NCBI GenBank assembly: GCA_006226565.1
Contig: SBGO01000480.1
Coordinates: forward strand, 1-53,003
Reading direction: 5' to 3'
DNA length: 53,003 bases
DNA from: Deltaproteobacteria bacterium
GTDB lineage: Bacteria; Myxococcota_A; UBA9042; PHBI01
Shown: positions 8,042-26,529 of the stretch, one piece after another
How the letters are laid out: every line of letters begins with the position of its first letter
Position numbering within the stretch: the first letter of the stretch is position 1
Program-made: the position numbers and the translations under genes
The notes under the pieces: generated by a model
What the model saw: only the letters and a program-made list of their open reading frames with translations
Database searches by the model: none
What the model was told of the DNA's origin: nothing

Positions 8042-8069
8042 GAAAGCCCCCGATTTCTCGGGGGCTTTC
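8042..8069 (-). terminator. Hairpin, probably the original tRNA-Leu terminator, now next to the displaced tRNA 3' fragment
   Basis: GAAAGCCCCCGA-tttc-TCGGGGGCTTTC perfect stem immediately after the duplicated CCA end. Confidence 0.75.
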
Positions 8070-8132
<63 letters not shown>

Positions 8133-8312
8133 TGAGAGCCAAGCGCCATGCGGGCTTCCGCCACAGTAACGATCAATCGGGCCCGGATTTCCGTCAACCC
8201 CGCTTGGTGCTTGGTTCCGCGAGTCTCAGCTCGGTCGGGCAGCTCACACATACGGCGGCGCACAGGATGGTGCCGTCGATGCGATGTAAGTCCTCGGATT
8301 GTCGGAGGTAAC

Positions 8313-8603
8313 ATGGTTGACCCCACCCCCCTCGACGGAGGCGACGGCACCATCACCGTCGGCCAGGCGCGACGGCTCAACATCGCCGACCCGAAGAGGG
8401 GGCCGGAGACGCTCAACCGGGTCGCGCGTTGGATGCTGACGGGCGCGATCCGGCCGGACCTCGCCCGGACCTTCGCGTACCTGGCGCAGGTCGCCGTGCG
8501 AGCGTCCGACGTGGCCGACCTCGCCGAGCGCCTCGACGCCCTCGAGGATGCGCTGAAGGGTCGGGACATGACAACCGCAGGAGGGCGTCATGCGAAGCAC
8601 TGA
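8313..8603 (+). CDS. Small hypothetical protein with C-terminal LAERLDALE coiled coil (DUF5681-like)
   Basis: GGAGGT RBS before ATG 8313; GAIRPDLA...LAERLDALE pattern resembles small proteins of integrative/satellite elements. Confidence 0.6.
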   Translation: MVDPTPLDGGDGTITVGQARRLNIADPKRGPETLNRVARWMLTGAIRPDLARTFAYLAQVAVRASDVADLAERLDALEDALKGRDMTTAGGRHAKH

Positions 8604-8781
8604 CCGCAAGCGACTCGATCGCCTGACCACAAGCGCGGACGGGGTTTGCCGCTACTGCGGCCGAGGGCCCGCGTCGGAAGAGCAACAGCGTGAGCTGACG
8701 GACGAGGAGGTCGCCGAGATTCTGCTTCTCGCGGCCGATGCCTTGAGGTTCGTGGACTGGGGCGCCGGTCAAGACGACTGA
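8590..8781 (+). CDS. Small hypothetical protein with CxxC
   Basis: GGAGGG RBS, overlaps the upstream gene end, CRYC motif. Confidence 0.45.
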   Translation: MRSTDRKRLDRLTTSADGVCRYCGRGPASEEQQRELTDEEVAEILLLAADALRFVDWGAGQDD

Positions 8782-9124
8782 GTGGAAGGCGACCGACCAT
8801 CTCCGGTCGGCGCGGAGCCGCGGCTCGCGGCGACGCCAAGCAGGCATCGAACGTGCGTGCGGCTCGTTGCGAGTTGGGGGCCGCCGCCCCACGTGCTCCG
8901 CACCGTGCGGGTCGCGCCGTTGCCGCGGTTGATGGGCACGTTAGCCTCTGCCCGTGGACCCTGCGGCGGCGAGCCGAGCGGCACTGTCCGGTCGACAAAG
9001 GGAGAGTACGCGTTGAACATGGTGGTTGTGCCGGCTGAGTTGCCTTCCACGTCGACGCTCGCGATTGCGATCTCGTGCAGCGCGCGATCGACGCCGGCCA
9101 CCTGAAGCGATGTGAGGTCGAGTC

Positions 9125-9334
9125 ATGAGGTTCATCGTAGTCGAGCGCGGTCCGATCCTGTGCAGGTTCAAAGACGGCTCGGTCGGAGTGATACCGAACC
9201 CGAACGACGACGAGGCGATGATGCGTGGCGTCGTCGAGGCCGAGACGCGCGATGAGGCGCTCGCGAAGGCTCAAGCCACTATCAAACTCGATGGTGACTC
9301 GGAACACTACACGCTCGACGTCATCGCGGACTAG
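9125..9334 (+). CDS. Small hypothetical protein
   Basis: GAGG RBS, protein-like composition, ATGA overlap with the upstream frame. Confidence 0.55.
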   Translation: MRFIVVERGPILCRFKDGSVGVIPNPNDDEAMMRGVVEAETRDEALAKAQATIKLDGDSEHYTLDVIAD

Positions 9335-9899
9335 GCGAACTCGACGACCGCAAGCGCTCATCGTCTGCGTCAGCGCGTCGCCGCCCCCGCACGAGGTCGG
9401 ACTCCGTCATGAGCTTGGATTCGACGCCGGCTCGACCGAGACGGTCGTGGTCGTCGAGGCGTTCTTCGGGGAGTGGATGCATTTCGGAGGTAGACGCCTC
9501 AGCGGTCGTGCGCGGCCGACGGCCGCGATCCCGTCCTGGGCGGCTCGTACTCGTGGTGGGACCGTTTCGCCTATGCGGACTCCTCGACGGCTTGGCCGAG
9601 AACGCCCCTGGCGGCTGCGTGGTCCTCGCAGGTGGACTTCGGCCGGCGCGGACCCCGACGCCGCGAGCCGGCCGTATCTCGCGTGCCCTGGAGGTCGTCC
9701 TGGGCGGGTCCAAGCCGGGCGACGAGCGGGACCACGAACGGTCGCGGTCGGGCGTCACGGGGTCGGGGGGACCTGCGTCTCTGTCATCTGCCTCGTCGGC
9801 AAGCGCGAGGGTGATTGGCCCCATTGGCAGCGCAAAAGGACCATTTGTGCCCTTCTACGACCCGTATCCGTCGTCAGCGCCCTTTTGCCGTGCGTCGTG

Positions 9900-10040
9900 A
9901 CCGGGGTCAGCGCCCCCGCGGGAAAGCCCATCGCCCTCACCACCGACCTCAGCGCCACGTCCACAGTCGCGCTCGTCGAAAGGCGCACCCATCGCGCCGA
10001 CATCATCGCCATCGAGGGCAAGAGCTGGCGCCACAAGCCA
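9900..10040 (+). pseudogene. Degenerate IS21-family IstB (helper ATPase) C-terminal fragment
   Basis: Translation KPIALTTDL...ALVERRTHRADIIAIEGKSWR resembles the IstB C-terminal IxxTTN...AxxDRLxHxxxxxxIxGxSYR motif. Confidence 0.5.
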
Positions 10041-10074
10041 CAAGGAAACTCGCGATCGTCTCGACCGCCGCGAC

Positions 10075-10705
10075 GACGAACATGCGTGAACGCCACCCCT
10101 CAACCGGCGTCGTCCCATTTCCGCGGTTCCTCATGAGCGTCTACAGTCGCGGACGCCATCACGATCCTGGTCGAGATAGCCGCGCCACTGCGACCACACG
10201 AGGCGAGCGTCCTCGAGACAGTCCGCGCGCTCGAGGTCGTCCGTCGTCGACGCCCGGAACAGGAACACGAGCTCACCGCGCCGGTCGCGCAGTTCCTCGG
10301 GGAAGATGCGGTAGCGCTTGATGCGGTCGACCCGGTCGAAGGCGCCTGCGCGTTTGACGCGCACCCTCTGTTGGTGCGGAACAAAGACGCGCAGTCCGTC
10401 GAAGCCCGGCTTCGGGATGCCGGCCCGACCGGTCGCCTCGGCGATGGTCGCGGCGTAGAGGTCGATGACGAACTCGCGGCCGGCTCGTCGGGCCGCATTG
10501 AACACCGTCACCAGGCGGCCGATGTTCTGTGCCGAGAAGGCTGTGAGGACGAGGCCACGGGTGTGTGAGAAGGTGAGGGGCAGGTCGTTCTCGAACTCGT
10601 ACTCGGTGAGTACCGGACGCGGCGCCTCCCTCGCAGGCGGGACGTTGGTGCCCTCCGTGAGGAGCACGTCGATGGCCGGCGGCGGGTCTGCGAGGAGCCG
10701 GTGGT
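10075..10705 (-). pseudogene. Truncated MBL-fold/beta-CASP (RNase J-like) hydrolase fragment
   Basis: PPPAIDVLLTEGT, SAQNIGRL, VIDLY, WSQWRGYL motifs; N-terminal HxHxDH half missing; frame breaks before the HTSGH motif. Confidence 0.7.
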
Positions 10706-10713
10706 GACTTCAA

Positions 10714-11454
10714 TCATGTCTTGAAGCGCACGTTCGTGCGAATCAACCCGCTCGACGGATGGGGGCCCGCATACAGGACGATAACGCGTGACTTGCCGAA
10801 CAGGTTGTTGCGGTGGAAGTAAACGCGAGCGGCGTCCTCTCTGGTCGTCCTGTCGCCTTCCTTGAGGTGCCAGCAGGTTCGGCTTGGCCGGTCGGTCGGG
10901 GCCCCGTCGTGATACACGTTATATTGGAACTCGACCCCGCCGCTGGACGCGTAGCAGATGCCCCGTTGATTGAAGTAGGCGTCCAACCGCCCGGCGCTAG
11001 GGTTGCTACTGTACTCAAGGAGCGCTTGGGCAGCGCGGGTCATGAACCGTTGCCGTCGCTGAGTAACGTCGTCTGCTCTCGCGAATGCGTCCTCTGCGAA
11101 CACCATGAGGCCCTTCGATGACTCTGCTGCGACCATGAAGGCTCTACCAGGCGGTACAACCGGGACCAACGCTGGCGGCGGTGCCGTCTTGTGGAGCCAG
11201 GTCTGAAGCTCATCTTCTGTGGGCTTCTCTAGGACAACGTTGAAGCAGTGAGCCTTCAGAGCCCGCCGATATTCCTTGGTCAGGCTGAAGCATGCGATCG
11301 GGGCGTCCCGCTCAGCGTACAGTTCGCCGAGGGTCCGACCGCTGGGTTGTTCTTCGCTCGGGTCTCCGATTAGCTTGACGTCAACGAAGTTCGAAGCGGT
11401 GAGCAGCCCCTCCAGTCGTGTGTGATACCGCGCGTGGCATACAACGAAGCGCAT
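10714..11454 (-). CDS. Hypothetical protein with a C-terminal RelE/ParE-like motif (candidate toxin/effector)
   Basis: WHLKEG...RVYFH...VIVLYAGPHP; GGAGA RBS; atypical codon usage. Confidence 0.7.
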   Translation of the reverse strand: MRFVVCHARYHTRLEGLLTASNFVDVKLIGDPSEEQPSGRTLGELYAERDAPIACFSLTKEYRRALKAHCFNVVLEKPTEDELQTWLHKTAPPPALVPVVPPGRAFMVAAESSKGLMVFAEDAFARADDVTQRRQRFMTRAAQALLEYSSNPSAGRLDAYFNQRGICYASSGGVEFQYNVYHDGAPTDRPSRTCWHLKEGDRTTREDAARVYFHRNNLFGKSRVIVLYAGPHPSSGLIRTNVRFKT

Positions 11455-11483
11455 GGCCCGTCTCCGTCGAGCGAGGCTCTACG

Positions 11484-12335
11484 TCAGCGCTTCCCCGCGA
11501 GGACATCCATCACAAGACCGATCGGGAGAGGCACCTGTCTCAACTGGTCATCGCCCATTCTATCGACGACTTCCTTCACCAACTGTCGCAGGTCTCGCTC
11601 TTTTGGACCAGCAGCCATCGTCTTGGGCGGCTTCGGCCGAGCCGCGTATCCTGATTGGATAATGGTCTTCATCGCCGCGTCGGCCGCTGCATCGCTGGTG
11701 CAAGTCTCGGCCAAGCTGCGTTGCAGCTCTTCCCGAAGTCTCTTGTGCCGATGGCTTGTCCAGTCATCGGCGCATGTCGCTCCTCCAGCGCGGATTGTCG
11801 TCAGCCACTCGCGCCACCACCCATCGCGTGCAGACTGGACGAGACTCAGTAACTCGGACCGGAGATCTTCACTGGGGATGGCGCTACTGTCACGTGCGAA
11901 CTCCATGGCGATGCGCTCGTGAACCTCCGGGGCGGCGGGAGGGAGCACCACGCCCGCGCAATCCTGAGCTCCCGTTTCAGGCATCATGCTGACGGCCCCT
12001 GTGGCAGCATCGACGCAGATGACGAACGTCGCTCGCGGGCTAACCCACACGCGCCAGAACTCGTCTTTCCGCGCGCCGCCGTGGTCGGACGTCGCCCATT
12101 CCGTCAGGCCCCAGATCGGGTCGAGGCCGGAGTGACCGATGATCGCAACGCCATCAACATGGAGCGTCATGAACTCCTTCAGGTTCCGTGCTCCATAGGC
12201 TCTTGGCTGGAAGTCCGGCGCTACGCTCTTGATGACGTTGCCTGCCCGCGACCCCATGAGTCCGTCCGGCGCGGCCTGCCGAATCGCGTCGCGGACCGCA
12301 TCGCCAATCGTTTCGATGGTTGAGCCTTCGGTCAT
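11484..12335 (-). CDS. Hypothetical protein with an N-terminal OST-HTH/LOTUS-like motif
   Basis: GNVIKSVAPDFQPRAYGARNLKEFM resembles the OST-HTH PDFDPRxYGxxxLxxL pattern; GGAGG RBS before ATG 12335. Confidence 0.7.
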   Translation of the reverse strand: MTEGSTIETIGDAVRDAIRQAAPDGLMGSRAGNVIKSVAPDFQPRAYGARNLKEFMTLHVDGVAIIGHSGLDPIWGLTEWATSDHGGARKDEFWRVWVSPRATFVICVDAATGAVSMMPETGAQDCAGVVLPPAAPEVHERIAMEFARDSSAIPSEDLRSELLSLVQSARDGWWREWLTTIRAGGATCADDWTSHRHKRLREELQRSLAETCTSDAAADAAMKTIIQSGYAARPKPPKTMAAGPKERDLRQLVKEVVDRMGDDQLRQVPLPIGLVMDVLAGKR

Positions 12336-12541
12336 GTTCCCTGCCTCCAAGAGAATAGGAAGCGGCGCCGCACTGTGCAGACGCCCTTCCTTCATTTGCT
12401 CTTTTCGCGCAGGATTGGCCGAAACGATCGATTGTCTGTGGACAATCTCGGACCAACCTCCGGTCCAATCTGAGCCGCGCACCCAGCTCAGAGAGGCATC
12501 CCTGGAGGGCCATAGGGTGCTATCCCATCCAGATTGAGGAA

Positions 12542-12570
12542 ACGTTAACCTCCCCCTTCGTACGAGTCAA
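12542..12570 (-). promoter_or_regulatory. Sigma70-type promoter for the 12335/11454 gene pair
   Basis: TTGACT-17 nt-TAACGT on the minus strand. Confidence 0.6.
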
Positions 12571-12841
12571 GCAACCTCATTCGTGGCCGACGCCCGAAAC
12601 GCCCGCGTAGCAGTCCGACGAGCGCCCATCTCGCTGCACGAGTCGAGAAACGGAGGCCGAACCATGACCGACGAATCGAGCGTGGGCGACGAACGAGGGA
12701 TAGATGGCGAGGATCGCGCCAACAGATGCCATTCGTGGTCTAGGTGGGTCTAGGCGAGGCAGTTGAGTGCTTGGTGCGCGCTGTGAGCAGGGCAGCCGGA
12801 CTCGCCTGTGGCAGTTCGTTGACTGCGTCCCGGAGCCGCTC

Positions 12842-13858
12842 CTATGTTGGGACGTAGGTCTTCCGCAGCGGCACCAGCGCACGGGCGCGTGGGTCGAGTT
12901 GCTCGTAGTACTCCAAGAGGAGGTCGCGCAGATCGGCCAGGTTGAGGAGCTTCAGGGGCACGTTGGCCCGATCCGCCTCGTACTTCGCGTCCTTCGTGAA
13001 ACCGCCCGTGCTGACGTAGAGGCATCGATCCCCGGCGCTTCGGCCGCCGAGGAACGAGCGGATCTCCTGACTGCCCATCGTGCTCTTCAGGCGGTGCTTC
13101 ACCTCGACGAAGATGCGCGGCTCCTCGAGCCCGAGCCCGTCGGGTGACGCGAAGATGTCGACGCCGCGGTCGGCGCCGCGCGGCGAGATGGTGGTCTTGT
13201 ACCCCATCGCCCTCAGGATCCCGGCGACGAGCTCCTGGAGTTGCTCCCAGTCGAGCGCGGCGATCCTGTCACCAACCGCCTCTTCGGACTTCCCGAGGAG
13301 CTCCTTCTGGAAGTCGACCGCCGAGTCGCCCGCGGTCGTGTCCTCCGGCGCCGGGGCCGCCGACTCCTCGGCGAGCTCGTCCAACGGGACCGCCTTGGTG
13401 AGGACCTCTTTGGCGGCCTTCGTGTTGAGCAGGAACAAGGTCTGGATCGCGCCCAGCGTGTTCTTCGTCTCGACGCTCAGCACGTCTCGCGGAGCGGCGC
13501 GGGTCCACTCTACCTCGCGGACGTGAGGCATCTCCTCGATCTGCTTCGGCCGCCAGCTCACGTCCGAGGTGACCTCGCCGACGAGGTAGAGACGTCGGTT
13601 CTGGTCGTAGGTGATGACGGTGTCGCCGGTCTTGATCTCATTGACGAAGCGCGCGATCTGCCCGGTCTGGTTGCTCACCGTCGCCTTCGACTGGCTCGGG
13701 AAGACCTGCTCGTAGCGCGCGACGATGTCGCTCTTCGGCATGTTCGGCGCGAGCTCGCCGAGCTCGCGCCACCCGATCGCGACGACGCCATGAGACTCGA
13801 ACTCTTCGACATGCACCGCGCTCGCGCCGGCGCGTACCATCCAGGTCGACGGCATCAT
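12842..13858 (-). CDS. mrr: Mrr-family (type IV) restriction endonuclease
   Basis: WMVRAG...VAIGW N-terminal domain; ELVAGILRAMGY...GADRGVD...VEVKH...LYVSTGGFT Mrr catalytic domain. Confidence 0.9.
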   Translation of the reverse strand: MMPSTWMVRAGASAVHVEEFESHGVVAIGWRELGELAPNMPKSDIVARYEQVFPSQSKATVSNQTGQIARFVNEIKTGDTVITYDQNRRLYLVGEVTSDVSWRPKQIEEMPHVREVEWTRAAPRDVLSVETKNTLGAIQTLFLLNTKAAKEVLTKAVPLDELAEESAAPAPEDTTAGDSAVDFQKELLGKSEEAVGDRIAALDWEQLQELVAGILRAMGYKTTISPRGADRGVDIFASPDGLGLEEPRIFVEVKHRLKSTMGSQEIRSFLGGRSAGDRCLYVSTGGFTKDAKYEADRANVPLKLLNLADLRDLLLEYYEQLDPRARALVPLRKTYVPT

Positions 13859-16041
13859 GCCTCCTGTTGAACGTCGATTTCGCCCCGATCGCCGATGTAG
13901 AAGACGACCGTCCTTCGCTTCGCCTCGAGAGCTCGTCGGCCGGTCCCCGCTCCTCGGGTGGTTTCCGGGTGGCTATCTCGGATCGAGAGATCGAAGCCGA
14001 CGATCTGCACCGGCTCATCGGGCTCGTCCGCCGCGACCCACCGGGTGCTCTCGATTCTCGTCTCGCCGAGGCGTTCGTCCACGGAGGTGACCGGCCAGCC
14101 CCGTCGTTGAAGCTCGGCCACGACCGAGTGGAAGGCGTAGCGACGAGACATCTTCTCGATGAACTCGTCGCTCGTCATTCCGCGTGCCACCTCCACGCCG
14201 TCCCAGTCGGCCGCGAAGACATAGCCGCCGCCGGCCTCTTCGCAGACGTAGACGTCGTGGTGCTTCGAGACGTGGATCGCCATAACCACGACCCGCCCTG
14301 GGACGAGCGCGGTGTCCGAGGCGAAGCTGTCGAATTGATGCCCGGTGTCCTTCACCGCGCGGATGATCGCGGGCAAGGACGCGAGCCGGGCGGGGCCGTC
14401 TCCGTTCAGAGAAGATGCGACCTGGATCCTTCGTTCAGCCTCTGCCGTCGCGCCGTCAACCGAGGACCTCACCGGTCCCGCGGAGAGGTCGTCCAGAATC
14501 CCCTCGAGCTGCTCGACGACGGAGCGGAGGTCTTCGACGATCTCCTCGGTGATCTCGTCGGGGTCGGGGAGGTTCTCGGCGTCGAGGAGGCTCTCGTCCT
14601 TCAGCCAGAACAGGTCGAGGCTGCACTTGTCGCGGGCGACGAGCTCCTCGTAGTCGTAGGACCGCCAGCGCCCCTTCGGCTGGTCCTCCGACCAGGTGGG
14701 CGCGCGGCCCTGTCGGTCGTCGGCCTTGTAGCAGGAGACGAACTCGTCGAGGTCGCGGTCCTTCATGCGCTTCGTCTTCAGCGTGAAGTGCATGTTCGTC
14801 CGCAGGTCGTAGACCCAGAGCTTCCGCGTCCAGGCCGTCTTCGAGGCGGGCTTGCGGTCGAAGAACAGCACGTTCGCCTTGACGCCTTGGGCGTAGAAGA
14901 TGCCGGTCGGCAAGCGCAAGAGCGTGTGGCAGTCGCACTCCTTGAGCAGCTCCCGACGGATCGTCTCGCCCGCGCCGCCCTCGAAGAGCACGTTGTCGGG
15001 GACGACGACGGCGGCGCGGCCGTGCATCTCGAGCAGGCTCTTGACGTGCTGAACGAAGTTGAGCTGCTTGTTGGTCGTGCTCGCCCAGAAGTCGTCGCGC
15101 TCGTAGACGATGCGCTCCCGATCCGTGTCGCCCTCGTCGGTGACGACCATGATGCTCGACTTCTTGCCGAAGGGCGGGTTCGTCAGGACGACCTGATAGC
15201 GGGTCGAGCCGAGCTCGCGCAGGGCGTCGTCGGTCCTCACCGGTAGCCGGGCGTCGATCTCGGCGTCGGCTTCGTCCTTGCTCTTGCCCGCGGCCATGAG
15301 CTGCTCGTGGACCACCTCGAGCTCCTGCGGGGTCGGTCCGACGCCGTGGAGCATGAGGTTCATGGCGCAGAGCCGGGTGACGCTGTGGACGATCTCGACG
15401 CCACGGAAGGCGTGCAGGCGCAGGTGCTCTCGATCTTCGCGGGTGAGGTTCGCGTGATTGGTCGGGTCGGTGAGGTAGGCGTGTGCGGCCAGCAGGAAGC
15501 CGCCCGTGCCGCAGGCCGGGTCGATGATGCGATCGCGCGGGGCAGGGCGGATGCACTTCACCATCGCGTCGATGAGGGCGCGGGGCGTGAAGTACTGGCC
15601 CGCCCCCGACTTGGTGTCCTGGGCGTTCTTCTCGAGCAGGCCCTCGTAGGTATCGCCCTTCACGTCCACACCGACCATGACCCACTTCTCGCGGTCGATG
15701 AGGTCGGCGATGAGGCGGCGGAGCTTGGCCGGATCGCTGATCTTGTTCTGCGCCTTTCGGAAGACGAGGCCGAGCAGGCCGTGCTGCTTGCCCAGGTGCT
15801 CGAGCGTCTTGCGGTATTGGACTTCGAGGGCGTCGCCGTCCTTCGACATCAGGGTCGGCCAGTCGAAGCCCTCGGGGATGGGCGACGGGCGCTTCCACGG
15901 CGGCTTCGTGTACTCGTCGGCCATCTTCAGGAACAGCAGGTAGGTGAGCTGCTCGGTGTAGTCGCCGTAGGAGAGGCCGTCGTCCCGCAGGACCTGGCAG
16001 TAGCTCCAGAGCTTGTTGACGAGGGTGCTTGGATCGCTCAT
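13855..16041 (-). CDS. hsdM: Type I R-M methyltransferase subunit M with a ~210-aa C-terminal extension
   Basis: GQYFTPR, DPACGTGGFL, NPPF motifs; the usual end (LPDPD...ILDDL) lies near 14485. Confidence 0.95.
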   Translation of the reverse strand: MSDPSTLVNKLWSYCQVLRDDGLSYGDYTEQLTYLLFLKMADEYTKPPWKRPSPIPEGFDWPTLMSKDGDALEVQYRKTLEHLGKQHGLLGLVFRKAQNKISDPAKLRRLIADLIDREKWVMVGVDVKGDTYEGLLEKNAQDTKSGAGQYFTPRALIDAMVKCIRPAPRDRIIDPACGTGGFLLAAHAYLTDPTNHANLTREDREHLRLHAFRGVEIVHSVTRLCAMNLMLHGVGPTPQELEVVHEQLMAAGKSKDEADAEIDARLPVRTDDALRELGSTRYQVVLTNPPFGKKSSIMVVTDEGDTDRERIVYERDDFWASTTNKQLNFVQHVKSLLEMHGRAAVVVPDNVLFEGGAGETIRRELLKECDCHTLLRLPTGIFYAQGVKANVLFFDRKPASKTAWTRKLWVYDLRTNMHFTLKTKRMKDRDLDEFVSCYKADDRQGRAPTWSEDQPKGRWRSYDYEELVARDKCSLDLFWLKDESLLDAENLPDPDEITEEIVEDLRSVVEQLEGILDDLSAGPVRSSVDGATAEAERRIQVASSLNGDGPARLASLPAIIRAVKDTGHQFDSFASDTALVPGRVVVMAIHVSKHHDVYVCEEAGGGYVFAADWDGVEVARGMTSDEFIEKMSRRYAFHSVVAELQRRGWPVTSVDERLGETRIESTRWVAADEPDEPVQIVGFDLSIRDSHPETTRGAGTGRRALEAKRRTVVFYIGDRGEIDVQQEA

Positions 16042-16057: not shown

Positions 16058-17566
16058 TCAGGCGCCGTGTTCGGCCTGGATGCGGGCGAGTAGGGCCGTC
16101 GCGGGCTCGTCGCTCGGGTCTTGGGGGACGAGCTTGCCCTCGAAGGCGCGCTTCAGGATGGACTGCCGGAGGTTGCCGCAGCGGGTGAGGTTCCGCTCGA
16201 CGGCCTGTTCGGCGGCGTCGAGGACGGACAGACGGCGTTCGACCTCGGCGACGATGCGCTGTTGCTCGTGAAGGGGGGGCAGTGCGACGCGAAGCTCGCG
16301 GATGTTTGTCAGATTGAGCCCTGGCTTTCCCGCGCCGTAGGCGGCCTTCTCCAGTTGTGGTCGGCCCCCGCCGTGAGCCATGAGCCAGGTGTGCAAGTAG
16401 GGACTCGTGACCACATCGACAGGTCGGCAAAGACCGACGTGCTGGTTGACGTACGCCTCTCCCACATCGGCTTGGACCCACGCCGATATGGTGACGTTCG
16501 CGCCCGTGATGATGATCAGAACGTCGCCCATTTGCACTCGTGTCCGCGTCCCTTCTGCTCCGGCGGGCAGCTCCACGTGGGCTACCAGTGACAGATCGAG
16601 CCTGTATGTGTTGATATCCTGCGAGCGGATGAACAACGGGCCGGACTCTGAGTAGTACCGCGCCCACCCTCGGGAGCCGCTCGTTACGAACTCGGTCATC
16701 TGGTCGGTCGTTGCCCACACCCATCCCTCGGGCAGCTCGGGTAGCCCATCGGTGTCCGGCTCGACCGGCGGCGTGTACTTCTTCTTCCCCCCGGCGGCGG
16801 CCTGCTCCTCGTCGTGCTTGCGCTTCCGCTCGGCCAGGATGCGCTCGAGCAGGTCGGCGGCGGGTTCGTAGGTGCGGCCCTCGGCCTTGGCGAGCTCGGC
16901 CTCCGTGGGCACCAGCCGGCCCTCGACGGCGGCCTTCAGCACGCTGGCCCGTGCCCGCTCGAGCTTGACCTTCACCCGCTCCAGGGTGGCGACGGCGTCG
17001 TCGAGGCGGGTGAAGTGCTTCTCGATCTCGGCGACGATGCGCTCTTGCTCGGGGAGTGGGGGCAGAGCAGTCGGCCAGCGAACGACGGCCTTCGCGCCGA
17101 TGTGGTGGATGCCGACTCCTCTGGATGCCCGCGCGAATTCCCCGGTTAGGGCGTCCTTGACGAAGTGCAGATGCAGGAAGGCAACAAGCTCTCCGGGCGC
17201 TCGCACACGGATGAGCGTGTTCTGGAAGCAAGCGCCTGGCACCTGCCCCTTCCATACCGCAGGCTTCCCTACCTCGGATGCACTGCCAGACGCCTCGGCC
17301 AGAAGGATGTCACCGACCTGGAGGACGTAGACCTCAGCCTCAGAAGGCGTGAAGTCCATCTCCTTCACGTCATGTAGGCTGATCCCGTCCCAGGTGACGT
17401 TTGCGGCGCGCATGTACGGTCGCATGTTCGGGCCGGTCGCTTTCTCGGGGCTCCGCTGGCGCCCGAGTCGAACCTCGGCGATCTCGCCAAGTCGCGTCGC
17501 TGCCCACCCCGGCGGCAACCCGTTATCGCTCCCGGCGTCGAAATTCATGTTCAGTTGTTCGCTCAC
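16058..17566 (-). CDS. hsdS: Type I R-M specificity subunit S
   Basis: Two LPxGW starts and two LPPLxEQxRIVAE conserved regions flanking two A/T-richer TRDs. Confidence 0.95.
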   Translation of the reverse strand: MSEQLNMNFDAGSDNGLPPGWAATRLGEIAEVRLGRQRSPEKATGPNMRPYMRAANVTWDGISLHDVKEMDFTPSEAEVYVLQVGDILLAEASGSASEVGKPAVWKGQVPGACFQNTLIRVRAPGELVAFLHLHFVKDALTGEFARASRGVGIHHIGAKAVVRWPTALPPLPEQERIVAEIEKHFTRLDDAVATLERVKVKLERARASVLKAAVEGRLVPTEAELAKAEGRTYEPAADLLERILAERKRKHDEEQAAAGGKKKYTPPVEPDTDGLPELPEGWVWATTDQMTEFVTSGSRGWARYYSESGPLFIRSQDINTYRLDLSLVAHVELPAGAEGTRTRVQMGDVLIIITGANVTISAWVQADVGEAYVNQHVGLCRPVDVVTSPYLHTWLMAHGGGRPQLEKAAYGAGKPGLNLTNIRELRVALPPLHEQQRIVAEVERRLSVLDAAEQAVERNLTRCGNLRQSILKRAFEGKLVPQDPSDEPATALLARIQAEHGA

Positions 17567-20436
17567 GCCACCAACCGTTCGTTGAGCTCAGCCACGATCG
17601 CCTCGTACTCGTCCCCAAATACCTCGAAAAAGCCGCCAAGCCCGCCGGCGTTGATGAGGGGGACCTGGTCGAAGTCTTCCATCCGCACCTCGACGTCTCC
17701 GGCGATGCGGTCACGAATCAACTCGAGCCAGCGCGTCTGTTCGGCGCTGAAGGTTCGACCCCTGTTCGCCTGCTGGGCGAGCCAGTTCGTGAACCGCTCG
17801 TTCACCTCGTCGGCGTAGGGCACAAGGTCTTCGTTCGGGTACATGGCGTGGCGGGCGAGCGCCACGATGTCCGTCCACAGGCGACCCTCGCTCGCCCCCT
17901 TCACGCGGTCTGCGTCGACCCGCTGATAAGCGGCCCACAGACGCTCAGTCGTCCACTGGCGCTCCGGCAACCGGATCGCGTCGGCGAGCTCCTTGATCTG
18001 CTCCCGGCGCAGCCGCCCGCTGTAGGGGCGGGTGTAGAGGATCTGGAGCGCGTCGATCTCGTCCCGGTGCGCCGTGATGAAGGTTTGGAAGGACTGGATC
18101 AGCGCCGCGTCGTAGTCGATCTGGTGCCCGGGCTTTGGGCCTGAATCCACCACCGTGTCGGCGGTGGTGTCGTCGATGACCTGCTCCTGCTGCCGCCGCA
18201 CCTCCAATATGGTCTGGCAGAGGGTCGGGTTGTACGCGAGCGGGGCGGCAGCGGCCTCACGTAGCTCCTCCTGCGCGTCCTTGACCTGCTCGACGGTCGG
18301 CTGGGCGTCGTCGGCCAGATTGTGCAGCTCGCGGGCCTTCGCGTCCTCCTTGTCGGGGTCGAGCGCGTCGAGCAGTCGCGCGACGATCGCGCGCAGCGAT
18401 TCGCCGTTGTTGGCCCGCTGAATGGCCGCCGCCTGGGTCCCGTTCAGCTTGCGCTCCATGCGGTCGAGGCGGCCCGCGAGGTTGGCGAGTACCGCCTCGT
18501 CGCGGTTCCCGGCTCGCACCAACTCCAGGAGCGCCTCGAAGGAGATGCCCCGCGACCGGATGAGCGGCGGGTCGGACTTCTGCTCGTCCATCACGCCGAC
18601 GGCGTCCACGATGACGAAGTGCGTCTTGACCGTGGCGTCTCGCGTGATGGCCTGGAAGTCGGAGTCGGGCATGACCCGGACGCCCCGGCCCTTCATCTGC
18701 TCGAAGAGGCCCCTCGATTTCACCGACCGCATGAAGACGACGCACTCGAGCGGCTTGATGTCGGTGCCGGTGGCGATCATGTCCACGGTGACGGCGATGC
18801 GGGGCTGATAGGAGTTGCGGAACCTCTGGATCACGTCCTCGGGCCTGTGAGAGGCGGAGTGGCGGGTCCCGTCGCCGAGCTGGCGCTCGGGCTTGTAGGT
18901 GACCTTGACGGCCTCCTCGTTCCCGATGGCGAACTCTTCGCGGATGACCTCGAGGATGTCTTCGGCGTGGTGGTCGTTCTTGGCGAAGAAGAGGGTCTTC
19001 GGGATCTCGGTCCGGCCAGGGAAGATCTCGGTGAACAGCTTGTCACGGAACTCGCGAATCACCGTCCTGATCTGGTCTGTCACGACGACGCTGCGGTCGA
19101 GGTCCCTGGGCGAGTACGTGATGTCCTCGTCGAGCGTCTCCCAGCGCACCTCGCGGGTCTGACGGTCGCGCTTCCCAACGACGACCGGGTCGCTCTCGCT
19201 GACCTCGAGCGTTCCCCCTTCGCGGGTCACCCTGGTCTGGATCTTGTAGACCTCGAAGGGGACGTTGACCCTGTCGCGGACGGCGTGCTCGTGCCGGTAC
19301 TCGGAGACGACGTTCTTGCGGAAGAACGCGAACGTGTGCTTCGCCGGGGTCGCCGTGAGGCCGATGATACTCGCGTCGAAGTACTCGATGACCTGCCGCC
19401 AGAGCGTGTAGATGCTGCGGTGGCACTCGTCGACGACGAGCACGTCGAAGAACTCCGGCGGGATGTACGGCGAGTAGACGACCGGCGGTGGTTCTCGGAC
19501 CAGGGCCGACCCTGAGCCATTGAACGCCGACCCCTCTTCCAACTCGTCGTTGTACTCTGGCTCGCCCTTCAGGATGGAGTAGAGGCGCTGGATGGTCGTG
19601 ATGACGACCCGGTTCACGGGGTCGATCTTGTTCGAGGTGAGCCGGGTGACGTTGTAGAGCTCGGTGAACTTCCGGCCGTCGTCGGGCGCCGTGTACGCTT
19701 GGAACTCTTTGTACGCCTGGCGACCCAGGTTGCCTCGGTCGACGAGGAAGAGGACGCGGCGGGCGCCGCCGAACTTGATGAGGCGGTAGAGCGCCGCGAT
19801 GGCGGTGTAGGTCTTTCCGCTGCCGGTCGCCATCTGGATGAGCGCTCGCGGCCGACCCTCACGAATCGACTTCTCGAGGTTCTCGACGGCCCGGCTCTGC
19901 GCGGGCCACATGCCCGCCGCGTTGAGGGTCGGGGCCTCCTGCATCCGCCCGAGGAAGGTCGCTGCGACCGGGGCTCCGGGGCGAGCCTTCTTGATGGCGA
20001 TGGCGTCGTCGAGCCACCTCTTCAGCGTCTCGGGCTGATGGAAGTGGAAGACCCCGCGGCTCCGGGGCTTGGGGTCGAGGAGGTTCGTGAAGCGCGTCTC
20101 GACGCCCGTGGACTCGTACAGGAAGGGCAGGGGGCGGATGGGCACCGGGATGGTGCTCGGCACCTTGGAGGCGTAGTCCTTCGTCTGTGCCTCGATGCCC
20201 GTGAGGACGACGCCCTTCTTCTTGGCCTCGATGATCCCGGCGGGCTTCCTGTCCACGTAGAGCAGGTAGTCGGCGAACCCGGCGTCGGTCTTGAACTCAC
20301 GGATGGCGACGCCGAGCTTGGCCGCGACGTTCATCTCGGCGCGGTCCTGGACCGCCCATCCGGCCGCCTCGAGCGCGGCGTCGATGTTCAGCCGCGCGAG
20401 CGCCTCGGGGGAAAGGTCAGGAGTTGATGCAGCCAT
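17563..20436 (-). CDS. hsdR: Type I R-M restriction subunit R
   Basis: ADYLL...IEAKK nuclease motif, MATGSGKT, DECH, GLTATP, QMKGRG helicase motifs. Confidence 0.95.
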   Translation of the reverse strand: MAASTPDLSPEALARLNIDAALEAAGWAVQDRAEMNVAAKLGVAIREFKTDAGFADYLLYVDRKPAGIIEAKKKGVVLTGIEAQTKDYASKVPSTIPVPIRPLPFLYESTGVETRFTNLLDPKPRSRGVFHFHQPETLKRWLDDAIAIKKARPGAPVAATFLGRMQEAPTLNAAGMWPAQSRAVENLEKSIREGRPRALIQMATGSGKTYTAIAALYRLIKFGGARRVLFLVDRGNLGRQAYKEFQAYTAPDDGRKFTELYNVTRLTSNKIDPVNRVVITTIQRLYSILKGEPEYNDELEEGSAFNGSGSALVREPPPVVYSPYIPPEFFDVLVVDECHRSIYTLWRQVIEYFDASIIGLTATPAKHTFAFFRKNVVSEYRHEHAVRDRVNVPFEVYKIQTRVTREGGTLEVSESDPVVVGKRDRQTREVRWETLDEDITYSPRDLDRSVVVTDQIRTVIREFRDKLFTEIFPGRTEIPKTLFFAKNDHHAEDILEVIREEFAIGNEEAVKVTYKPERQLGDGTRHSASHRPEDVIQRFRNSYQPRIAVTVDMIATGTDIKPLECVVFMRSVKSRGLFEQMKGRGVRVMPDSDFQAITRDATVKTHFVIVDAVGVMDEQKSDPPLIRSRGISFEALLELVRAGNRDEAVLANLAGRLDRMERKLNGTQAAAIQRANNGESLRAIVARLLDALDPDKEDAKARELHNLADDAQPTVEQVKDAQEELREAAAAPLAYNPTLCQTILEVRRQQEQVIDDTTADTVVDSGPKPGHQIDYDAALIQSFQTFITAHRDEIDALQILYTRPYSGRLRREQIKELADAIRLPERQWTTERLWAAYQRVDADRVKGASEGRLWTDIVALARHAMYPNEDLVPYADEVNERFTNWLAQQANRGRTFSAEQTRWLELIRDRIAGDVEVRMEDFDQVPLINAGGLGGFFEVFGDEYEAIVAELNERLVA

Positions 20437-21638: not shown

Positions 21639-21863
21639 GTGCGACTCGATGACGAACCGACGCCGTTCATGTCGGTGGCGGCCTTCGCCGCGGCCCACAA
21701 GTGGCCGAGCGAGCGCTCCGTTCGGCACTGGCTCTACCAGAACACGGACGGCTTCAGGTCGCGGTGCGCGCGGCGCATCGGCCGCTCCGTGGTGCTCAAC
21801 GTCGCCGCCGTGTGGGCGTGGGTCGACGAGCACGTAGAGAGCGCCGCGGAGGTGGATTCGTGA
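21639..21863 (+). CDS. Excisionase/AlpA-like small DNA-binding protein
   Basis: FMSVAAFA...SERSVRHWL...RRIGRSVVLNVAAVWAWV winged-HTH pattern; GGAGGGAGG RBS. Confidence 0.75.
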   Translation: MRLDDEPTPFMSVAAFAAAHKWPSERSVRHWLYQNTDGFRSRCARRIGRSVVLNVAAVWAWVDEHVESAAEVDS

Positions 21864-23326
21864 GCCCGCGCGATGCCTACGGATTCGCTGAGGGGACTGC
21901 TCTGTCGCACGCGATCGAGGTCGAGCGGGAGCTTCTGGGCGCGATGTTCCTCGACCCCGCGAGGGTCTTTCCGTTGCTCACTGGGCGACTCCGCGGACGA
22001 GATTTCTACTCGCAGGCGCACGGGCTGATTTTCGAGCACTCGCTCGGGCTCTGGCAGGAGAGCGGCGCCCTCGACCCGCCGTTGCTTCTTCAACGACTCA
22101 AGGAGCGAGGGGCCTGGGAGCGTTGCGGTGGTGGAAGCGGGGTCAGGGAGGCGCTCGCCCACGAAGGCTTGGTCGTCAACGTCGCCCACTACCGCGACCT
22201 CATCCTCGACAAGGCTCGCAGGCGGCGGATGGCCGAGGCGGCTGTGGAGATCGGGCGAGCGGCGCACGATGAAGGGCGCGCCGTCGACGACATCGCCGCC
22301 TCGGCTCGCGAGCTCATCGACGACGCCCAGCGCGAGGGGGGCCACTCGAGCCGGATCTTCGCGCCACCGGTGACCGCCGACGGCGCGTCGTGGCTGACTT
22401 CCGTGCCTCCGAAGCGCGCCTCCATCCTGTCTCAGCGCGATGAAGAGGACCCGCAGCGGGGTCGGTCCTTCCTGCCTGCGGGTGTCGTTGGGGTGTTCTC
22501 TGCGCCGGGCGGGACGGGGAAGTCGATGGCCTTGCTTCAACTGGCCTTCTCCGTCGCCACGGGCTCGGACTGGTTCGGCCTCGTCGTCGAGGAACCCGGC
22601 GACGTGGCGATCGTCATGGCGGAAGAGGGCAGGGACGAGCTCTGGCGGCGCTTCCACCGGATCGCCCGCGCGATTCATGGCGATGACCACGAGGCGTTGC
22701 GCAGTGCTGCTGAACGGCTTGGGGAGCGTGTCACGGTCGCTGCGCTGAAGGGCCGTCCCTGCACGATTCAGAACGCCGACGACCCGGAGAGGATGACCGC
22801 ATTTGGCCATCAGCTCGTCTCGGAGCTCGCGAGTGACCCGTCCCGGTCCTGGAAGCTCATCATCATCGATCCGCTGTCGCGGTTCGCCGGCCCAATGGCC
22901 GAGGTCGATAATCACGCCGCGACGCGCTTCGTCGAGCATCTCGAGACGCTCACGGAGCTACCCGGCGGTCCCGCCGTCCTCCTCGCCCATCACGAGGCGA
23001 AGGGCGGGAAGAGCACAAACCAACACAGCGGTCGAGGCGCGACCGGCCTGTCCGATGGGGCCCGCTGGGCGGCCCGCCTCGAGGCGGTGGAAGGGCCGGA
23101 TGGCGTCTTGCCACTTCTCGTCCGACTGCGCCAAACGAAGAACAGCTACGGCCCGCTAGGGCCAGCGCTTCGCCTGAAGCGGATTGCAGGCGGTGCGCTC
23201 GTCGTTGCGAGCACGTCGGACTTCTGGGAGGCCGGTGCGACCGGCGAGGCGAAGCCGGTCAAGCCGCGGGCGGCACGCAACTCGGTGTCGGCGCGAGCGG
23301 CGAAGATCGCGGGGCTCGCACCGTGA
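21860..23326 (+). CDS. Replicative helicase: DnaB N-terminal domain fused to an AAA_25/RepA-like ATPase
   Basis: HAIEVERELLGA...DFYSQAHGLIF (DnaB_N); APGGTGKS Walker A, LIIIDPL Walker B, AHHEAK, RGAT; GTGA coupling to the upstream gene. Confidence 0.85.
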   Translation: MSPRDAYGFAEGTALSHAIEVERELLGAMFLDPARVFPLLTGRLRGRDFYSQAHGLIFEHSLGLWQESGALDPPLLLQRLKERGAWERCGGGSGVREALAHEGLVVNVAHYRDLILDKARRRRMAEAAVEIGRAAHDEGRAVDDIAASARELIDDAQREGGHSSRIFAPPVTADGASWLTSVPPKRASILSQRDEEDPQRGRSFLPAGVVGVFSAPGGTGKSMALLQLAFSVATGSDWFGLVVEEPGDVAIVMAEEGRDELWRRFHRIARAIHGDDHEALRSAAERLGERVTVAALKGRPCTIQNADDPERMTAFGHQLVSELASDPSRSWKLIIIDPLSRFAGPMAEVDNHAATRFVEHLETLTELPGGPAVLLAHHEAKGGKSTNQHSGRGATGLSDGARWAARLEAVEGPDGVLPLLVRLRQTKNSYGPLGPALRLKRIAGGALVVASTSDFWEAGATGEAKPVKPRAARNSVSARAAKIAGLAP

Positions 23327-24789: not shown

Positions 24790-25206
24790 CAGGACCTGAC
24801 ATTCAGTCGGAATGGGGCTCGTCGGGGTGTCCGACCTTAACGGTACGGAACGGTAGTGTAGTCCGCGGCCGCTACGCGGTGCCGCCTGACGGCGTCACCG
24901 ACGCGGCCGCAGTGCAGTCGACGGTCGGAGGTGCGGCATGAGCGCCTCCGACAAGGTCGACGTCGGACCGCCGGGTGTCGAGACGGGGGCGGCGCGTCGG
25001 AAGCGTGTGCTGGCCGGCATGTTAGCGGCTGCCCACGCGCAGGAGGCGTCGGCGCGCGCACAGGCGGAGTCGGCGCGCGCACAGGCGGCGTCGGCGCGCG
25101 CACAGGAGGAGACGGCGCGACGGCTTCGCGAGCTTGCGGCGCTGCTGGCGGATGAGTCAGGATCAGGGGGACTGGAATCCGGGCCCCTCAACGACGAGGG
25201 CCTGGG

Positions 25207-26529
<1,323 letters not shown>

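Follow-up and report, generated by a model that had tools for sequence, protein, structure and literature searches.

What is the two-gene cassette that lies beside a type I restriction-modification (R-M) system in a genomic island of a Deltaproteobacteria bacterium, and how might its two proteins work together? The cassette sits on the minus strand of a 53,003-nt stretch (contig SBGO01000480.1, assembly GCA_006226565.1), which we call the window, and consists of a 283-aa gene (gene 1) followed after 29 nt by a 246-aa gene (gene 2). An earlier reading made from the letters alone, the sequence-only reading, had described the locus as an A/T-richer cassette that might encode a new sensor or antitoxin together with a ribonuclease (RNase). 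Both open reading frames (ORFs) were confirmed on the minus strand, and the compositional claim was borne out by a GC content of 0.615-0.626 over positions 10501-13000 against 0.65-0.75 in the flanks. We conclude that the cassette is probably an undescribed toxin-antitoxin (TA) or phage-defence module. The best explanation overall, to which we give about even credence, is a mobile cassette of an RNA, gene 1 and gene 2 in which an RNase effector is restrained by gene 1 and which follows TA or abortive-infection logic.

A conserved gene pair and its candidate effector

Homologous loci were collected with a gene 1 pattern (seven metagenome loci), a gene 2 pattern (six genome loci) and a scan of 400 other genomes of the window's phylum, in which gene 2 was found in one genome, so that the cassette appears rare and patchy. 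In all ten lineages where both positions were readable, gene 1 was followed directly by gene 2 on the same strand, in agreement with the predicted co-occurrence of the pair. These lineages are the window, L003, the near-identical group L004/L005/L006/L008, L007, L010, L011, L012, L013, L014 and L015, with gene 2 running off the contig end in L007 and L010, and the gap between the genes was 4-29 nt in nine of the ten (all but L010). The contig of an eleventh lineage, L002, stops at the end of gene 1, and one locus found with the gene 2 pattern, L016, has no gene 1 and is a Menshen operon. By their record titles the hosts include Myxococcota (three metagenome-assembled genomes, MAGs), Verrucomicrobiaceae and Betaproteobacteria, which represent at least three phyla; a scan of genome contigs with the gene 1 pattern gave no confirmed match. 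With two adjacent co-directional genes, the regulator first, a short gap and their retention together, the pair has the gene layout of a type II TA system, and the unit ends with gene 2 because the downstream genes vary and often lie on the opposite strand.

Gene 2 matched no family in Pfam, NCBIfam, PHROG or PADLOC and no PDB sequence. Word-index protein searches returned only gene 2 itself for gene 2, one relative for gene 1 and three for a gene 1 profile, and for gene 2 we used an exhaustive search of 1.84 billion representatives, which recovered 136 proteins including the query at E ≤ 1e-3 and 102 at E ≤ 1e-10. The family thus comprises 135 further clusters at 50% identity in the representative library, and its members fall into two classes, one of ~245 aa that matches gene 2 over its full length and one of ~280 aa that shares only the C-terminal ~140 residues. 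We aligned 52 sequences of the first class (49 near-full-length representatives, two locus translations and gene 2) and observed that H196, R210, Y212 and P233 are invariant and that at least 90% of the rows share P102, R134, F137, L145, A169, G172, L197, K198, G200, T203, F213, G230, P231 and H232. The C-terminal HLK.G...RVYF...VLYAGPHP pattern, from which the RNase assignment had been proposed, is therefore real and conserved across the 52 family members, and the equivalent R, H, G, R, Y, G and H residues are all invariant in 61 sequences of the ~280-aa class. These conserved positions suggest H196-R210-H232 as the likely active site, helped by K198, Y212 and R134. No convincing Pfam family emerged from the 113 relatives of both classes. 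Separately, we noted that the ~280-aa sister class (P0022-P0133, alignment A5) carries a different alpha/beta domain, recognisable by the motif VLPYA..P, and at its N-terminus one more conserved segment, IGLP..LR.R.EA.A, which looks like a strand-helix DNA-binding element; among 400 sampled genomes of G401's phylum this class gave only two weak partial matches.

The AlphaFold model of gene 2 (pLDDT 94.4, pTM 0.81) has two domains. Its N-terminal domain is Rossmann-like, with no PIN chain among the 50 matches listed, and its predicted C-terminal domain matched six RelE-superfamily toxins over 81-96 residues each, alignments that span approximately the full length of every one of these toxins except HigB1. 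Among the matches listed, the structural neighbours of this RNase-like domain were all toxins, with YafQ among the best of them, and the nearest named ESM Atlas cluster of gene 2 is a YoeB-family cluster (score 0.86), which serves as a lead only.

The L016 locus links this domain to an effector of anti-phage defence. Menshen is a validated defence system whose mechanism is unsolved, and PADLOC detected NsnA (7e-114), NsnB (9e-102) and NsnC (4e-20) as consecutive genes in L016. The C-terminal domain of this NsnC aligned with residues 99-236 of gene 2 (BLASTP, 37% identity over 138 residues, E 4e-26), a comparison made with the L016 protein and not with the archetypal PB-BECR1. In the available text of Li et al. 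(2025, PMC12065111), archetypal NsnC has an inPIN + PB-BECR1 architecture with an H-R-H triad, its C-terminal domain is placed among the BECR/RelE-superfamily RNase domains, and YafQ is among its best structural matches. On the plan of NsnC, gene 2 combines a small Rossmann-like N-terminal domain lacking catalytic residues with a putative BECR RNase-like domain at its C-terminus, and its H196, R210 and H232 would fit the published triad; the N-terminal domains of the two proteins share no detectable sequence similarity. Unlike Menshen, the cassette pairs its putative effector with a LOTUS protein and a structured RNA, and neither NsnA (ParB-DUF262) nor NsnB (ABC ATPase) adjoins it. In the window's genome, which is 94.8% complete, nothing matched NsnB, and a single DUF262-like match, of only 21 bits, turned up on another contig, and in the other loci with the pair gene 2 is likewise not placed after NsnA and NsnB. 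Because gene 2 is homologous to L016 NsnC yet matches no NsnC model and resides in a genome with no NsnB, its sequence identifies it as a putative NsnC-like effector outside Menshen. The view that the pair is not a recognised named system holds insofar as PADLOC calls neither protein, as had been expected, but gene 2 is no orphan, since its effector type is already known (Menshen NsnC and the RelE/BECR superfamily).

A weaker connection leads to HEC-07, whose PADLOC model was touched by 20 of the 52 gene 2 relatives (best E 6e-4) and not by gene 2 itself. In the available text of Payne et al. (bioRxiv 10.1101/2024.01.29.577857), the HEC-07 C-terminus is described as RelE-like, so that HEC-07 resembles gene 2 in carrying such an RNase domain on a larger protein in defence contexts; in contrast to gene 2, HEC-07 consists of one protein that is far longer and has AdoMetDC-like and thioredoxin-like domains. 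In L016 the Menshen operon has a type I R-like gene on one side and a SoFic gene on the other, and we observed that the type I R-like protein encoded at L016 174-3293 (+) has a C-terminal Peptidase_S24 (LexA-like) domain (E 9e-8), an unusual fusion.

The LOTUS protein and the structured leader RNA

Gene 1 had been read as having an OST-HTH-like N-terminus and a helical C-terminal motif, and both were recovered. Pfam assigns OST-HTH/LOTUS (PF12872) to residues 12-56 at 26.4 bits against a cut-off of 23.8 (E 6.2e-6), and the same family was matched by six of 12 gene 1 homologues at E ≤ 0.1. The structure predicted from these 12 homologues (pLDDT 83.4) has four parts, namely an N-terminus with a predicted winged-helix fold like that of solved LOTUS domains, a Trp-rich domain that yielded no informative structural match, a linker and a C-terminal helical segment. 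Within the latter, all 12 sequences share R266, P271 and G273, and at least 90% of them keep L268, V275 and D277; we infer that residues 244-283 might serve as the partner-binding segment. A prediction of the complex between gene 1 and gene 2 (score 0.00, mark 0.32) carries no weight either way. We placed the start of gene 1 at the ATG at 12335, and not at the alternative in-frame GTG at 12482 (332 aa, 49 more residues), because the homologues begin at the ATG. By inspection of the sequence, a Shine-Dalgarno-like GGAGG stands 8 nt 5' of this ATG, and a Shine-Dalgarno-like GGAG precedes the gene 2 ATG at a normal distance. Two further ideas about gene 1 were rejected: the comparison of its helical part with a DUF3696-like tail was dropped because the gene 1 profile shows no similarity to the L016 NsnB, and the UPF0158 clusters that residues 88-283 reached in the ESM Atlas, at 0.80-0.82, are at chance level.

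The region upstream of gene 1 had been described as a leader of about 200 nt. A leader exists, but there is more to it than untranslated sequence: it forms a conserved structured RNA, which begins a few nucleotides past the -10 element and stops about 15 nt short of the gene 1 ATG. Across 11 aligned upstream regions we observed the same order of TTGAC, a spacer of 17-18 nt, a -10 TA, a five-helix RNA, a ribosome-binding site and the start codon. Folding of the 200-205 nt that precede gene 1 yielded a z-score of -2.97 in the window and of -3.46, -3.99, -3.11, -3.34 and -5.76 in other loci. The RNAalifold consensus of the 11 sequences contains 40 pairs, 24 of them with compensatory changes, at a mean column identity of 60%. 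The proportion of paired cells was 90.7% versus 81.1% in shuffled alignments, and the number of pairs changing on both sides was 24 versus 10.3; none of 500 shuffles equalled the observed value of any measure, and registers slid along the alignment reached at most 54.4% paired cells and 13 pairs changing on both sides.

The promoter predicted ahead of this RNA, TTGACT-17-TAACGT, is present at a conserved position in the homologous loci: all ten other loci that reach TTGAC keep it, all 11 that reach the -10 element keep its TA, and the distance to the RNA is constant. A strict sigma-70 consensus scan did not pass the promoter in the window, L013 or L003, but for a putative promoter its conserved position is better evidence than such a scan.

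We then assessed the RNA with covariance models. Model R1 gave one match per locus, always just upstream of gene 1, in sequences that mostly belong to its own training set; it found a single match in the window (78.6 bits), which was also the only one in the window's whole genome. Model R2 was built from nine sequences with the window and L012 left out, and it recovered both: positions 12355-12539(-) were its only match in the 53 kb (22.7 bits, E 5.9e-6), and in L012 it matched 2696-2812, just before the L012 gene 1 (E 1.5e-7). Neither model matched the Menshen locus L016, and a search of 150 further genomes of G403's order with the RNA model found nothing beyond G403 itself. Rfam 15 gave no match at E ≤ 1 in positions 10000-13000 of the window and none at the RNA position in eight other loci. 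A phage contig containing an 18-nt core of the RNA was rejected as a carrier because the match lies inside a coding region, no RNA model matches the contig and it has neither gene 1 nor gene 2. A search of sequencing runs listed no RNA run; its one match, a DNA run, may come from the source sample. Within the RNA there are two copies of CAAUCC, each of which pairs with GGGUUG (alignment A7 columns 1-9, 131-145): the first forms the 5' end of P1, and the second belongs to the 3' side of P3. A single-stranded CGAU that follows P3 and an ACC bulge in P2 hardly vary and may therefore mark a site of ligand or protein contact.

The leader RNA may be a third component of the cassette, and it has a part in two alternatives to restraint of the RNase by gene 1. 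According to the first, the RNA itself is the antitoxin or sensor: a separate small RNA of ~165-190 nt, ending at the 3' hairpin, would be held by the LOTUS protein in a ribonucleoprotein that gates the RNase, as a type II/III hybrid in which read-through supplies the proteins. The protein encoded next to the RNA carries a domain of an RNA-binding type, as set out in the available text of PMC2848206. The RNA occupies the 5' end of the transcript, is closed by a 3' hairpin that is terminator-like by score in L013 and L003, is single-copy in each locus and strictly tied to gene 1, and is kept in sequence and structure across phyla far beyond what is expected of an ordinary leader (60% identity, 24 covarying pairs). 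This arrangement recalls the type III TA system ToxIN, in which a promoter-proximal structured RNA and a hairpin precede the toxin gene. The ToxIN hairpin sets the RNA-to-toxin ratio. Unlike ToxIN, the cassette has a protein gene between the RNA and the putative toxin, a different toxin fold and no tandem RNA repeats (no arrays in positions 12250-12900 of the window), and the lack of ToxI-type repetition, together with a hairpin in the window that is not terminator-like, makes an RNA antitoxin unlikely in our judgement.

The second alternative concerns RNA processing. LOTUS domains are best known from animal germ-granule proteins. In bacteria, almost all OST-HTH domains described in 2010 were fused to an NYN-type RNase, for which they were proposed as substrate recruiters, and the available text of that study (Anantharaman et al. 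2010, PMC2848206) reports that no conserved gene neighbourhood connected the bacterial OST-HTH genes with CRISPR or other known RNA-processing systems. As in these OST-HTH-NYN proteins (LabA/DUF88-type), an OST-HTH domain with predicted RNA recognition is coupled in the cassette to an RNase-type partner, although the NYN domain is fused whereas the cassette has a separate BECR-fold protein. By analogy with such fusions, the pair may not be a poison at all; the LOTUS protein would recruit the leader or a transcript of the mobile element to a sequence-specific BECR RNase, and the cassette does bring a protein of RNA-binding type and one with an RNase fold together with a conserved RNA. We regard this as quite unlikely, since the RNase domain is closely related to an anti-phage effector domain, the toxins make up all of its listed structural neighbours, the cassette is found in so few genomes, and its surroundings consist of defence and mobility genes with no conserved element function.

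Weighing a proposed restrained RNase effector

In the explanation that we favour, a toxic RNase held in check by gene 1, one promoter would drive a structured 5' RNA, then gene 1 and then gene 2, as a self-contained and horizontally mobile unit. Gene 2 would be the effector, built on the NsnC plan of a non-catalytic N-terminal domain and a BECR (RelE/YoeB/YafQ) RNase domain, with gene 1 as its regulator in place of NsnA and NsnB. Gene 1 would hold the RNase inactive by direct binding, through either the C-terminal helices on their flexible linker or the Trp-rich domain, and its LOTUS winged helix would bind nucleic acid, most likely the cassette's own leader RNA. Because the terminator-like hairpin is located just before the ribosome-binding site, such binding would set the output of genes 1 and 2, and the 3' hairpin of the leader could tune read-through into both. 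Loss of the element or phage infection would then upset the balance and free the RNase, which would cut cellular or phage RNA, and growth would stop. What the comparisons themselves show is that the RNA, the LOTUS protein and an NsnC-like protein with a BECR-like domain are carried jointly by mobile elements behind one conserved promoter; RNase activity, toxicity, the contacts of gene 1 with gene 2 and with the RNA, the trigger and a role in defence are inferences.

A more far-reaching reading, which we put forward tentatively as a possibility, is a tripartite conflict module in which the LOTUS protein reads the dedicated structured RNA, or a phage RNA competing with it, and thereby gates the Menshen-type BECR RNase. 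If so, the cassette would provide the first bacterial function for a stand-alone LOTUS protein, would add a new class of structured RNA whose protein partner is defined, and would indicate that an NsnC effector can be driven by a sensor entirely unlike the ParB-ATPase pair.

Several results weigh against a restrained RNase as the function of the pair. Searching the gene 2 structure against the PDB with Foldseek returned nothing at E ≤ 0.001, the profile of the C-terminal domain (112 sequences given, 103 kept) did not match 11 YoeB-family sequences (hhalign probability 0.2%, E 0.29), and a search of PDB sequences with the gene 2 family profile brought up no RelE-family chain. That H196, R210 and H232 share one presumed pocket is deduced from alignment ranges. 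Gene 2 reaches no PADLOC NsnC model even at E ≤ 1, and few of its 52 relatives do so: one reaches PDLC03879 (4.7e-5), one PDLC03915 (0.0025), two PDLC03899 (0.021) and one PDLC03912 (0.028). LOTUS domains are chiefly known as binders of RNA and helicases, and not as operator-binding antitoxin domains. As for the leader, the window's RNA is the most diverged copy by its scores with both models, and its 3' hairpin was not scored as a terminator.

The Foldseek and hhalign results, together with the missing Pfam and PDB sequence matches, would also be expected if gene 2 were not an RNase. The RelE-like match would then reflect a small alpha/beta arrangement of a common kind, the His, Arg and Tyr would be conserved for another role such as the binding of nucleotide or protein, and the pair would have an unrelated function. 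This is very improbable, in our view, given that six RelE-superfamily toxins match the same domain over 81-96 residues, that the C-terminal homology extends to NsnC, whose archetype was placed in BECR by an independent published analysis, and that the conserved H/R/H is the pattern reported for NsnC in the available text of that work. The earlier assignment of a RelE-fold RNase to gene 2 is supported in part, by the structural matches and the NsnC homology, but not by profile similarity to YoeB or by a Foldseek match.

A toxic RNase restrained by gene 1 would also differ from the textbook members of the superfamily. Typical type II antitoxins are ~80-100 aa long and have ribbon-helix-helix (RHH), Phd or helix-turn-helix (HTH) folds. 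Whereas such antitoxins partner RelE, YoeB, YafQ and HigB, the cassette partner is a LOTUS protein of 283 aa, and a conserved structured RNA stands ahead of the genes; gene 2, with 246 aa, differs from these toxins in its added N-terminal domain and extra strands. The LOTUS partner, the architecture of two genes plus an RNA and the RNA motif are absent from PADLOC v2, Pfam and Rfam 15. We found no description of the pair or the RNA in the literature searched, a body of text that lacked most subscription journals, and neither OST-HTH nor LOTUS occurs in the available main text of the Menshen paper (PMC12065111).

With these comparisons, a protein family that lacks any model in Pfam, NCBIfam or PHROG and is not called by PADLOC becomes tied to the Menshen effector, and the presence of the same effector type under a different control module offers a two-protein test-bed for the restraint and switching of NsnC-type RNases. 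The cassette also joins a bacterial LOTUS protein to a conserved protein partner and to an RNA, likewise conserved, that is a candidate ligand, which makes its binding specificity directly testable, and the leader RNA, with its strong covariation and its absence from Rfam 15, is a new RNA motif in its own right. Should a defence function be confirmed, a compact system would be added to the catalogue and one more R-M-adjacent island operon would be explained.

Mobile settings and neighbouring genes

The window's cassette had been placed directly downstream of hsdRSM-mrr in a mobile island, and both the gene order and the island were confirmed (Table 1). The island measures ~18.4 kb, is integrated at tRNA-Leu(CAG) and bracketed by a direct repeat, and has as its cargo an integrase, a DnaB/AAA_25 helicase, the type I R-M system, an Mrr-like gene and the cassette. 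The GC content at third codon positions (GC3) falls from 0.96-0.98 in chromosomal genes through 0.91-0.92 in the R-M genes to 0.73 in gene 2, which suggests that the cassette arrived separately even from its R-M neighbours.

Table 1. Positions of the cassette, its predicted parts and its island neighbours in the window
Feature	Position	Strand	Details
Promoter (putative)	12542..12570	minus	TTGACT (12570->12565), 17-nt spacer, TAACGT (12547->12542)
Structured leader RNA	12351..12539	minus	About 165-190 nt; P1, P2 with inner hairpin, P3, 3' GC-rich hairpin; five helices
Gene 1	11484..12335	minus	283 aa; ATG 12335, stop 11484 (ORF reading)
OST-HTH/LOTUS domain of gene 1	12078..12335	minus	Residues 1-86
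Trp-rich mixed beta/helical domain of gene 1			Residues ~90-230; motifs WRVWVSP, WW..W, W..FR
Disordered linker of gene 1			Residues 230-243; pLDDT below 50
C-terminal helical segment of gene 1	11487..11606	minus	Residues 244-283; LRQLV..VVDRM..LRQVPLPIGLV; two or three helices, pLDDT 55-76
Gene 2	10714..11454	minus	246 aa; ATG 11454, stop 10714; two-domain NsnC-like protein
N-terminal small Rossmann-like alpha/beta domain of gene 2	11167..11454	minus	Residues 1-96; no invariant residue
C-terminal RelE/BECR-like domain of gene 2	10717..11121	minus	Residues 112-246; H196, K198, R210, Y212, H232
Mrr_cat protein gene	12842-13858	minus	Adjoins cassette, 5' side
hsdM	13855-16041	minus	5' of cassette
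hsdS	16058-17566	minus	5' of cassette
hsdR	17563-20436	minus	5' of cassette
DnaB/AAA_25 helicase gene	21701-23326		Inside island
Tyrosine integrase gene	25207-26487		Inside island
tRNA-Leu(CAG)	26440-26527		3' part lies in second repeat copy
75-nt direct repeat	8058-8132 and 26428-26502		Copies 93% identical

Mobility and defence genes also accompany the pair elsewhere. Its neighbours are a TrwC relaxase and a coupling protein in L015, a primase-helicase and an integrase in L012, two integrases in L005 and a PDC-M28-like ATPase in L011. In two Myxococcota MAGs (L013 and L014) the cassette is found among phage-tail-like genes encoding T4 baseplate, minor tail and gp19 tail tube proteins (L013 2124-3164; L014 4141-6806 and 8766-9227), where it may be cargo of a prophage or a tailocin-like cluster. 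A plasmid collection contained no match to gene 2 (tblastn) or to the RNA (blastn), and viral contigs gave one 15-residue chance match to the gene 2 pattern. The sequence-only reading had also cited PrrC, an RNase that backs up type I R-M; dependence on R-M in the manner of PrrC was rejected as a general feature because the pair is not beside R-M in the other loci, and the comparison is an analogy only.

Closer inspection of the neighbouring genes yielded several further observations. The Mrr_cat protein next to the cassette is more than a generic Mrr because its whole length is matched by PDC-S02, a candidate system in PADLOC (3e-86). Downstream, 46 nt 3' of gene 2 and on the same strand, a 178-aa ORF (10131-10667, minus) has gene-like codon bias (GC3 0.84); it matched no family, and no counterpart stands behind the pair in other loci. 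The remaining left end of the island (8148-10100) contained nothing that could be annotated. HsdM is long, at 728 aa, and in a C-terminal stretch its residues 590-654 match DUF1257 weakly, at 23 bits where the cut-off is 22.2. Finally, a 21-nt unit is repeated in tandem in three copies at 25031-25114, just upstream of the integrase gene.

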